A stretch of DNA of 64,000 bases, from assembly GCA_964016885.1 (NCBI GenBank), contig OZ024742.1, forward strand, positions 334,056,001 through 334,120,000, read 5' to 3'. The number at the start of each line of letters is the position of its first letter. The stretch's first letter is position 1. The DNA is from Eledone cirrhosa. Taxonomy: Eukaryota. Of the stretch, positions 2,518 through 59,787 are shown in pieces. A program made the translations under genes and the position numbers. Under the pieces are notes generated by a model that was given only the letters and a program-made list of their open reading frames with translations, was not told the DNA's origin and ran no database searches.

Positions 2518-2708
2518 TAATTGTTTCTACTTTTGTCACAAGGCCAGCAATTATCCCAGTGCATTACTGGTGTTTTATTTTATCGACCCTGTAAGGATGA
2601 AAGCAAAAGTTAACCTCGGTGGTATTTGAACTCAGGGCGTAAAAGGGCGTAACTCTATGCTACAAAGCATGGCGTCCGACCCTCTACCGATACTGCCAAT
2701 CCACCGCC
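2518..2708 (-). mobile_element. tRNA-derived SINE, family 1
   Basis: Minus strand has an A-box-like TGGCAGTATCGG, B-box GAGTTCAAAT, central GCTTTCATCCTTACAGGGTCGATAAAAT and an AGTAGAAACAATTATT tail; ACTTTTAATAAT flanks both ends as a likely TSD. Confidence 0.85.
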
Positions 2709-3061
2709 CTAGGAACTTTTAATAATGACCAGAAGTCGACCCTAAATATTACTAATAGCTCTTGGAAAGCCATGAGCGACACCACATCTGTTTAACTTTG
2801 ATTTTGAAAGTAGGTTTATAATTATCAATTTTCATTACATTATTGTAGCTGTCTCGGTGACCTAGCTGGAGGAATCATAAACGGTGGTGATTCTGGTCTG
2901 AAGTTCGATCCTGGTCGGAAGTAGGGATCCCGGTAAACCTTTCCATTTTTTTTTCTATCGGTTGAAAAAGAAAACTAAAAAGGTTACATGTATATTGCGG
3001 AAAAATATGTTACCTTCTCCAATAAAGCATATTGTGTATTTTGCGAAATCCAGAGACTTTC

Positions 3062-3250
3062 AATAATTGTTTCTACTTTTGGCACATGGCCAGCAATTAC
3101 CCAGTTTATTACTGGTACTTTATTTTATCGACCCCATAAGGATGAAAGGCAAATTTAACCTCGGTGGGATTTGAACTCAGAATGGCAAGGGCAGTAACTC
3201 TATGCATCAAAGCATGGCGTCCGACCCTCTACCGATACGGCCAATCCACC
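3062..3250 (-). mobile_element. tRNA-derived SINE, family 1
   Basis: Same consensus as 2518-2708. Confidence 0.85.
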
Positions 3251-55390: not shown

Positions 55391-55425
<35 letters not shown>

Positions 55426-55568
55426 AAAAAGTATGACCCCGACGGCAGAGCTGAAGCCGTTTCGACGGCTATTTCTGGACTAAATTTCCTATTTCCCACT
55501 CTACTACCCTAAGTACTGAGTACTCTGGTGCGTTATGCTCCATCTGGTCCATTACCACAATTCCTTTG

Positions 55569-55613
<45 letters not shown>

Positions 55614-55614
<1 letters not shown>

Positions 55615-55993
55615 GAGGTCAATCCCAAATGTAAGGTCTCCTTCCGATATTGCAACTTTTCCCTTAAAATCCTATGGAAAGCTCAGGAACCAAAATGCAG
55701 AGAGCATCCAGAGTGATCAGCCGATCTTTACGCATGTTTTCCTCGGAAGGAGACCTTACTTTTGGGATTGCCCTCTATATAATAACTGCGCGAAATTCGC
55801 ACTTGGCGGTAGCGTTCAGCGGGAGCACTCTTCTTAACGGCTGCCAAGCCAAGATTGAGCATCCCAGCGAATCGCGCGCATGCTTATTTGGGAGTGAAGG
55901 AAGCACCATGTACAATAGTGTTGCCAACAGCCGTACGAACAGTTTCTCTGCGTCCCCATCGCTTTGGAGACCTCACTCTTGAGATTACCCTCG
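55614..55993. mobile_element. mariner-type MITE with two alternative right TIRs
   Basis: TA|CGAGGTCAATCCCAAATGTAAGGTCTCC; inverted copies at 55749-55776 and 55966-55993, each followed by TA. Confidence 0.78.
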
Positions 55994-57011: not shown

Positions 57012-57362
57012 CTCTCTCTCATTCTCTCTACATTTAATATATATATAACAACAACACCCAAACAAACAACACTGACCTAAGAGAAGTATAAATAAATAAA
57101 TAAATAAATAGATAAATAAATAAATAAATAAATACATACACAAGCACAATAACAACAAACACACATAAACAGACACTAGTAAACATGGAATAGATTAACC
57201 AATACACCGTCACCCAATCACGAACACACATCAAACAAAACACTATACACACACGCAAACGCATGCGCAAAAATAAACAAACAAACAAATAAATAAATAA
57301 ATATATAAACAGACTAAATAAAGATGGCGTAGACATACAATGTAACGGGAGGAAACAATAGC

Positions 57363-57404
57363 ACCACTGACGATGTTGCAGAAGTGCAACGAAAGAACTT
57401 TGAT
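57363..57404 (+). ncRNA. HHR-like motif in repeat family C
   Basis: ACCA-CTGACGA-T-GTTGCA-GAAG-TGCAAC-GAAA-GAAC-TT-TGAT; perfect 6 bp stem II. Confidence 0.65.
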
Positions 57405-57607
57405 TAACTATATATATGTGTTTGTGCCTATAATGTATCTGTATTATATTTTTGACCGTTGGTCAGTCAATGCAACATTGAGGATCGAATAAATTAGATT
57501 ACCGATATAAAAGATACAGAAACAAAAAGCGAAAACCAACCAAACAGTGGGTGTGTTCTGTTATTAATTCTGGCAATATTACACAAATATGACCCTCCCC
57601 AAGTATA

Positions 57608-57716
<109 letters not shown>

Positions 57717-58552
57717 GTATGTGGTTGACCGCTGGTAGAAAAGTGTTCTCAATACTGAAGTAGAGTTTGATATTCATTTTATAAAGGCTAAATATTGAGT
57801 TTTATTAACCTGCAGTAAAATGAATATGCAGGAAAAAATGAATATATAGATAAAATGAATATATAGGAAAACACCGATAAATTTTTAAAAGCCGGTACAA
57901 CGCGGTAGAAAATACGAAGGGCAAATGAGGACAAACAAAGTAAAGCAAAGTAATGTTTTACGTAGTATATTATAACATAATATTTCAGGTTTATAACCCT
58001 CTTTTCAGATGGAATGCTGAAACAGTCCAAGACAAAAACAAAATAGTGATTAGTGCTTTCAGAGTTTTCTTCCGTAACAGGTCTATATGTTGAAAAATTG
58101 TATGCGCATGCGCGGCATTGGTATAATAGCCATTGCGCCTCGTACATTTCTCAACTATTATTTGGTTTTATTCGGCTGATTAAAATGACTTCCCTATTTC
58201 TTATATTAGCCATATTCCTTTCAATCGCATCTATAAATACTTAATTTATTGTAAAAGAGCTAATTTAGTATATGTGAAATTTATTACACTAACCTTAAGT
58301 TTTGGGGTCCAGTTATGACAGTCAATTTATAGTGTGACATAAAAAAAACACACACACAAACACACACACACACACACACTCCGACGGCTGAGCTCCGGCC
58401 GTTTCTACAGCTAGTTCAGAATTAGCTGTCAAAACGGGCGGATCTCAGCCGTCGGGGTCCTCACTCTTTTCCAATTACCCACTCTACTGCCCATCGTATC
58501 GAGTACTCTGGTGCGTTATGGTCCACCTGGTTCCTTACCACACTTCCTTCGT

Positions 58553-58625
<73 letters not shown>

Positions 58626-58626
<1 letters not shown>

Positions 58627-59720
58627 CGTAATGAACTGTTGAGAATTTCATTGCGTCATCAGGGAGGTCATTCTCAGCCAAGTCTCCAGGCAATGCGCGG
58701 ACACTGGGGACTCATATAAAAATAATAATAATTCGGTAAATGGAACAGCTATCGAGGACTGGATTCCAGGTACTGAAAATTCTCACTGCCACTGGTCATA
58801 TGACCGATTCTAAAGAATCAATCACGTGACACAGAGGCTAGTCAGTAGGAATGGAATGGTAAGATGACAGACGCCTACTAACACCCCCCAAAAAAATTTA
58901 GAAGAGGTTTTGGCAGGTTTGCTCGACAAATCAGTGATTTGGAGATAAATATAGATAATTTAATATATCTACTAACATAAGCGCACAGATGTACGCTAAT
59001 GCCAGCAAATACACAGGTTATGTCATAGTACCTAAGTGGTTCAATGCAGGAGGATGCAGAACAATAATATAAAAGACGTAAAATAAGTTGGAGGGAAAAT
59101 TTAAGTAAGTAAATTTAAAAAAATTTTTTTTTTTTTAAATTTTCTGATTTTACGTCTCTTATTTTACGTCTTTTATATTATTGTTCTGCATCCTCCTGCA
59201 TTGAACCACCTAGGTACTATGACATAACCTGTGTATTTGCTGGCATTAGCGTACATCTGTGCGCTTATGTTAGTAGATATATTAAATTATCTATATTTAT
59301 CTCCAAATCACTGATTTGTCGAGCAAACCTGCCAAAACCACTTCTAAATTTTTTGGGTGTGTTAGTAGGCGTCTGTCATCTTACCATCCCATTCCTACTG
59401 ACTAGCCTCTGTGTCACGTGATTGATTCTTTAGAATCGGCCATATGACCAGTGGCAGTGAGAATTTTCAGTACCTGGAATCCAGTCCTCGATAGCTGTTC
59501 CATTTACCGAATTATTATTATTTTTATATGAGTCCCCAGTGTCCGCGCATTGCCTGGAGACTTGGCTGAGAATGACCTCCCTGATGACGCAATGACATTC
59601 TCAACAGTTCATTACGTAACTGTCTTTATCCCATTGCAGAAACTAATTAGTTGGAGTGAAAATTTAAGTAAGTAAGTACATTTTTTTTTATTTTTTTATT
59701 TTTTATTTTCTTATTTTACG

Positions 59721-59728
<8 letters not shown>
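58626..59728 (+). mobile_element. Non-coding HHR-delimited element (retrozyme-like) preceded by a ~460 bp inverted copy
   Basis: 58626-59087 is the reverse complement of 59158-59617; 59086-59157 repeats directly at 59649-59723; (TA)n on both sides; no long ORF. Confidence 0.78.
59577..59656 (+). ncRNA. Type I hammerhead ribozyme
   Basis: CTCC-CTGATGA-C-GCAATG...CATTGC-A-GAAA-CTAATTAG-TT-GGAG; inner stem ACAGTT/AACTGT; palindromic stem III; GUU triplet. Confidence 0.78.

Positions 59729-59787
<59 letters not shown>

Follow-up and report, generated by a model that had tools for sequence, protein, structure and literature searches.

A high-copy non-coding hammerhead retrozyme of Eledone cirrhosa, probably mobilised by a Penelope-like protein, with two fixed 3' ends that pair one-to-one in head-to-head copies

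Non-LTR retrozymes and their link to Penelope-like elements (PLEs) are already published. According to the accessible text of two accounts of metazoan retrozymes (Cervera and de la Pena 2020, PMC7229834; Li, Clavereau and Pollet 2026, 10.64898/2026.07.22.740005), they are low-GC, non-coding tandem units with type I hammerhead ribozymes, spread genome-wide as monomers to short multimers, with PLEs proposed to mobilise them. The accessible text of the first shows retrozyme circles for coral, mussel and axolotl; that of the second gives cleavage in vitro for one of nine Xenopus retrozyme dimers, and known elements with homology turned up there for no more than 24 of its 57 Xenopus families. PLEs themselves have inverted 5'-truncated copies and a tail on one end as hallmarks (10.1101/2021.04.23.441226, in its accessible part), and PLE-type hammerheads are expected, in the accessible part of PMC4209133, to work as dimers. 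In the anole Poseidon PLE, two internal reverse transcription starts define the tail, and both strands are cleaved and extended; in the reconstituted system the dominant substrate was uncleaved RNA, and hammerhead mutants inserted normally (PMC11167929).

The repeat described here, from Eledone cirrhosa, shares the layout, dispersal and proposed PLE mobilisation of the metazoan retrozymes. Its unit is larger than the 170–400 nt circles of PMC7229834 and falls inside the 51–972 range of 10.64898/2026.07.22.740005. In contrast to the canonical hammerheads given in the accessible text of both papers, its ribozyme is of the PLE variant type, and its copies have fixed two-site 3' ends and head-to-head arms, which that text does not describe for retrozymes. 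One copy lies in the window, the 64,000-nt stretch that was analysed (contig OZ024742.1, forward strand, positions 334,056,001 to 334,120,000). Our preferred reading, held with good though not full confidence, is that the window copy is one insertion of a high-copy non-coding non-LTR retrozyme, likely mobilised in trans by a Penelope-like reverse transcriptase (RT)/GIY-YIG protein. The locus has the following features, in window coordinates:

58553–58625, no strand: (TA)n target tract bordering the inverted arm at its 3' end (TA array 58553–58623)
58626–59087, minus strand: inverted 5'-truncated arm, unit positions about 56–515
59086–59089, plus strand: head-to-head junction with 2-nt microhomology (AG)
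59090–59652, plus strand: a complete retrozyme unit, from one cleavage site to the next (563 nt, 37% GC, non-coding)
59162–59178, plus strand: internal copy of 3'-end site A (first inferred reverse transcription start)
59183–59281, plus strand: 'tail' between A and B, candidate protein-binding element (two predicted conserved hairpins)
59285–59296, plus strand: internal copy of 3'-end site B (second inferred start; when terminal, often followed by (CT)n)
59577–59656, plus strand: type I hammerhead of Penelope type (predicted cut after GUU at 59652)
59653–59730, plus strand: first part of the following unit, as far as terminal site A
59726–59781, no strand: (TA)n target tract bordering the plus arm at its 3' end

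The plus strand from 59086–59088 to about 59730 comprises 1.15 copies of the repeat unit. Both outer ends of the two-armed copy run into (TA)n, which makes a target-site duplication unreadable at this locus. The initial annotation had delimited 59090–59652 as a non-coding unit running from cleavage site to cleavage site, and this stands: a direct repeat (59082–59112 against 59645–59675, 94% identity) has a spacing of 563, and the unit has no Pfam match and a longest stop-free frame of 100 codons. The length of 563 nt is that of this copy, which a poly(A/T) tract and a duplication of 14 nt have made longer. The 460 bp inverted copy was likewise recovered (58626–59087 against 59158–59617); its arms differ by six substitutions and one 2-nt indel (about 98% identity), and the recent event proposed for them is supported as a recent retrotransposition. 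The locus has a single complete hammerhead, the inverted arm holding the 5' half only; judging from the arm alignment, a transcript through both arms would bury the 5' half of the complete ribozyme in a 460-bp duplex. The inverted arm stops at unit position 515, an atypical end that is neither A nor B and may reflect a later deletion or a cryptic start.

Copies of the repeat are spread over many contigs of the 3.0 Gb genome searched. Genome-wide, a junction 23-mer had 3,455 exact matches and a body 22-mer 2,188 (reversed controls, 0), and a one-end-plus-TA pattern had 3,433. The counts below come from a census of 81 loci in the first 92 Mb of contig 1, chosen by two exact patterns (junction and body) and freed of five duplicate loci before counting, together with 35 other loci; this choice under-samples very short or older copies, and the one-end-plus-TA pattern lists many that it missed. 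Units measured from junction to junction are mostly 541–562 nt long, and 67 of 69 such stretches could be aligned over an entire unit. Identity to the consensus varies with the subfamily, from about 80% to 97%, and the layout is the same in all. All 30 loci with the A-end signature belong to the window's retrozyme family, as do all loci listed in a sample of 20 from the most diverged subfamily, and the repeat was present in three organisms in the four contig runs compared. Two complete tandem hammerheads occur at 22 of the 81 census loci. Arrays reach six units, and those of four to six units are nearly homogeneous and fall in different subfamilies. Several features of a non-LTR retrozyme are found here: a type I hammerhead in each unit, a small low-GC non-coding unit, dispersed retrotransposed copies and tandem units with at least two complete hammerheads, the last present in the family and not at the window locus. 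One array (L301, G000:C28:36480300-36486400) has three consecutive 638-nt units beside units of 571 and 574 nt.

The hammerhead had been annotated from its sequence parts, with cleavage between 59652 and 59653, and these parts are present: stem I (CTCC/GGAG), the core CTGATGA (59581–59587), a 6-bp stem II (GCAATG/CATTGC), GAAAC, a palindromic stem III, and GTT directly before and GGAG directly after the predicted cut. Rfam searches at the gathering score and at E ≤ 10 gave no ribozyme call at the window locus and chance hairpin matches only, and the isolated hammerhead was not more stable than its shuffles (z −0.8), single-sequence folding being uninformative. The hammerhead was therefore tested on the family. 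When 12 subfamily copies were aligned, 98.2% of cells paired (slid controls, 32–50%) and double-sided changes were seen in 4 of 14 pairs; the covariation score was reached by none of 500 shuffles, a value that kinship among the sequences can inflate. Among 253 copies with an intact helix III anchor, 221 have the core CUGAUGA (198) or CUGACGA (23). Helix II falls into five main covarying haplotypes, all fully paired (164, 20, 12, 11 and 11 copies), and in one subfamily helix I is longer in step on both sides.

The ribozyme has an extra C after A9, G10.1–C11.1, a 6-bp helix II, an extra A before G12 and a palindromic helix III. All but the extra A are shared with PLE-type hammerheads as given in the accessible text of Cervera and de la Pena (2014, PMC4209133). 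In contrast, the extra A, which is conserved between C11.1 and G12 (a C...A pattern in 242 of the 253 copies), the long loop II and the GUU triplet find no mention in that text. The 12-nt palindrome of helix III self-duplexes at −10.8 kcal/mol. The active hammerhead fold (−5.9 kcal/mol) is less stable than the minimum free energy fold (−14.4 kcal/mol). Self-cleavage is a predicted activity.

The unit was also thought to begin at its own cleavage site, for which the position of copy 5' ends relative to the ribozyme is the natural check. These ends are near random. Only two of the 144 census arms have their start within ±5 nt of the cut, where a uniform spread predicts 2.9 and a hazard model 3.6; over all loci the tally is 4 of 203, with 4.1 expected. 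A mild excess at +0 to +24 (16 against 8.6 expected, p 0.015, one of five windows tested) is accompanied by a similar one at −40 to −6 (18 against 10.8), and there is no sharp peak. Junction microhomology of at least 1 nt is found in 40 of 73 pairs.

These data bear on the possibility that a self-cleaved linear monomer is reverse-transcribed to a 5' end at the cut, and that this end sets the inversion breakpoint. Besides the excess at +0 to +24, two single copies starting at +1 (L046) and +3 (L021) would fit such a template, and so would the window copy, in which the plus arm starts at 59086–59088, via the 2-nt AG microhomology. This is 2–4 nt upstream of the predicted cut position, as the breakpoint had been placed, but across the family such closeness is at chance level. 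Moreover, the window copy extends upstream of the scissile bond and continues across the second cleavage site, and at least one cleavage site is read through in 117 of the 144 arms. The scattered 5' ends, the read-through and the upstream bases of the window copy together argue that a self-cleaved linear monomer is not the usual template; we consider this explanation largely refuted and highly improbable. Of the initial proposal that a self-cleaved monomer or circle was reverse-transcribed, the circle stays plausible and the linear monomer does not.

The terminal redundancy of about 70 nt reported for the window copy is real (about 75–90 nt, up to 59730), but it reads as the distance to a fixed 3' initiation site, site A. 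Two sites account for the 3' ends of almost all census arms (132 of 144): A (about +75, 64 arms) and B (about +190, 68 arms). They lie about 115–120 nt apart and are both downstream of the ribozyme. A TA or CT run is abutted by 133 of the 144 arm ends. Among single arms, 23 of 42 have TA on the 5' side too, which fits insertion into a pre-existing tract. The tail between A and B has predicted hairpins at about 59183–59206 and 59232–59281, in which both partners change in 3 of the 31 predicted pairs, and is a candidate protein-binding element.

The inverted arm is a routine Penelope-like insertion form and no rarity: the 81 census loci hold 51 head-to-head pairs, two of which (L091) resemble a local duplicate. 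Of these, 45 have one A and one B end, none has two A or two B ends, and 6 have an atypical end; the window's own pair is among those with atypical ends. At the other loci, 19 of 22 pairs are A+B. Overall, every classifiable pair (64 of 64) combines one A with one B. An inverted arm might instead arise at the DNA level, if the first arm were copied by fold-back or snap-back either during insertion or later, and the two 5' ends are indeed no more than 8 nt apart in 8 of 73 pairs (2.3 expected), several of them at palindromes. However, copying of this kind predicts identical or random outer ends, in conflict with the A+B rule, which an autonomous PLE also follows (see below). We therefore regard it as very unlikely.

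The two sites also differ in what follows them. Ahead of the TA run, (CT)3–24 is found at 30 of 88 terminal B ends, but at none of the 88 A ends and none of the 113 internal B sites; the background of (CT)n in AT tracts is 3/218 and 9/1,306. The run is commoner in an older subfamily (20 of 30, against 9 of 57), whose B site already has a short TC seed. We read (CT)n as RT stutter at initiation, and its confinement to terminal B ends hints that a PLE reverse transcriptase may initiate reiteratively, in a telomerase-like manner. It may alternatively come from later slippage beside the TA tract, or from the targeting of compound microsatellites.

A very young autonomous PLE in the same genome has a 1217-codon frame with RT-like and GIY-YIG-like motifs, as judged by eye. 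In 19 of its 20 head-to-head pairs, one short and one tailed end lie in (TA)n; in the remaining pair one arm extends past the analysed stretch. The A+B rule is thus common to the retrozyme and an autonomous PLE, and links the retrozyme to PLE machinery by mechanism rather than by co-occurrence or homology. This PLE (L185–L196, L281–L300) has a long Asn-rich insert and a period of about 4.13 kb, at least 150 matches are identical over a 192-aa query, and it has two alternative tail ends, 43 and 58 nt past the short end.

The retrozyme has features of a non-autonomous PLE derivative, namely a tail, an inverted 5'-truncated copy and an AT-rich target. With EN+ PLEs, as described in the accessible text of 10.1101/2021.04.23.441226, it shares 5' truncation, partial tandems, the inverted 5'-truncated copy, a tail on one end and microsatellite or AT-rich targets; it differs in having no RT or endonuclease ORF and in its longer tail (about 115–120 nt, compared to 30–40). 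With anole Poseidon (PMC11167929) it shares two internal reverse transcription starts downstream of the hammerhead. Strict A+B pairing was counted here, whereas the start site seen in vitro in that study showed no strand difference.

A partner of the retrozyme with homologous ends was not found among the PLE families sampled (a Neptune-like family with a 796-codon frame, the young 1217-codon family and an older RT/GIY-YIG family); L061 holds one more PLE type, outside that sample. In 30 GIY-YIG matches with flanks to 1.5 kb, likewise, the only homologous ends were those of nested retrozyme copies. Contig 2 has a 3.45-kb triplet that was considered as a partner PLE and rejected as a local duplication. 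The Neptune-like PLE (L155–L184, L227–L230) is abundant, with copies about 97% identical, and its 3' UTR is a long compound TA/TG microsatellite.

The incompleteness of this partner search, with GIY-YIG flanks followed to 1.5 kb, leaves room for the repeat being only the truncated pseudo-LTR end of an unsampled autonomous PLE, in keeping with its PLE-type hammerhead, tail and inverted form. Against this, units of about 550 nt repeat head to tail with no ORF between them and no RT plus GIY-YIG ORF within the element, as in the 67 of 69 stretches that are full units. Among the loci listed, arms have their starts within the unit, next to (TA)n or to the opposite arm, and no long ORF adjoins the unit in the scans listed. 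The probability that we assign to a pseudo-LTR end is accordingly very small.

What form of RNA served as template? With seven complex loci removed, units of one locus diverge by 1.3% within an arm and 1.5% between opposite arms, compared to a between-locus median of 7.1% (nearest-neighbour median 1.1%). In 21 cases a locus-unique variant is common to every copy at its locus, with 13 of these variants spanning both arms, and 190 variants are private to one copy. Low divergence within loci and shared variants fit a single monomer sequence templating both arms, although a homogeneous source array would look similar. Folded as a circle, the unit of the window copy has a z of −7.3 and five others have −1.5 to −7.0 (12 shuffles each). 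Phasing of variants gave two informative positions for telling a circle from a linear multimer, nearly all patterns being single mutations: the L080 array alternates at one position, and L096 shares a variant by unit index across its arms. These two, and the mixed 638- and 571-nt units of L301, are unexplained by a single monomer circle.

Those three loci would suit a variant of our reading in which the element and its Penelope two-site priming are the same, an uncleaved linear transcript reading through a genomic tandem array serves as template, and the hammerhead is a slow or regulatory leftover with no circle made. Multimer transcripts could come from the 22 census loci with two complete tandem hammerheads, and uncleaved RNA is the in vitro substrate of the anole PLE. 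Yet 5'-truncated arrays copied in this way would be expected to shrink with each generation unless regenerated, and arrays of four to six near-identical units exist; locus-unique variants are common to all units; and the ribozyme is kept with covariation between subfamilies about 80% identical. We think such a linear multimer unlikely as the template. A monomer circle is a plausible and somewhat favoured candidate.

The favoured mechanism would run as follows. A Penelope-like protein would nick both strands of a TA tract and prime two cDNAs on a single RNA, one from site A, the other from site B. The two cDNAs would be joined mid-way at short microhomologies, producing the inverted arm. Less certainly, the RNA would be a monomer circle, arising through hammerhead cleavage of the dimer type and ligation by the host, on which reverse transcription could roll past the ribozyme junction to give more than one unit; the ribozyme would then define the circle and not the 5' end of the insertion. 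We put forward more tentatively, as a possibility somewhat short of even, that a dimeric Penelope protein works on one small RNA circle, priming both nicked strands asymmetrically at the feet of the structured 115-nt tail and rolling round the circle in both reactions, with telomerase-like (CT)n stutter at B ahead of elongation. If so, each insertion would involve two cDNAs, and the genome would gain new compound microsatellites from these elements.

The thousands of young, short insertions of this family provide a natural record of Penelope integration, whose inverted and tandem products are still unexplained in print, and the A+B rule yields a direct prediction for a reconstituted system. 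A literature search of titles and abstract openings (supplements and most subscription journals lay outside its scope) found no report of strict A+B pairing or (CT)n stutter in a retrozyme.

Several other repeats surround the window copy. Another short head-to-head repeat is present in two copies (58380–58552 and 55424–55570, 88% identity over 129 nt); its 3' half is hammerhead-like, and its outer ends, which are unequal, lie in (TA)n. The window retrozyme sits in the TA tail of the copy at 58380, and similar copies flank L030, L236, L238 and L301. At 57033–57612 an older relative of the young autonomous PLE has left its 3' end, with the same 3' UTR and a hammerhead-like core near 57367; this stretch ends in (TA)n at the short end site. 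On the minus strand, 57715–58340 has a degenerate hammerhead-like core near 57990–58020 and is possibly the end of a further PLE family. A mariner-like transposon fragment (55613–55990, judged by eye from the sequence and from similar frames) is inserted after a TA run. Elsewhere, L005 has a head-to-head pair of another hammerhead repeat (2700–3090, CUGAAGA core) directly past the TA tail of a retrozyme array, and PLE-type elements nested in each other's TA tails were common at the loci examined. Within the retrozyme itself, a GTAAGT splice-donor-like motif, often duplicated, is conserved in all subfamilies about 16 nt downstream of the cut (window 59090–59115), and may be a relic of a PLE pLTR intron.
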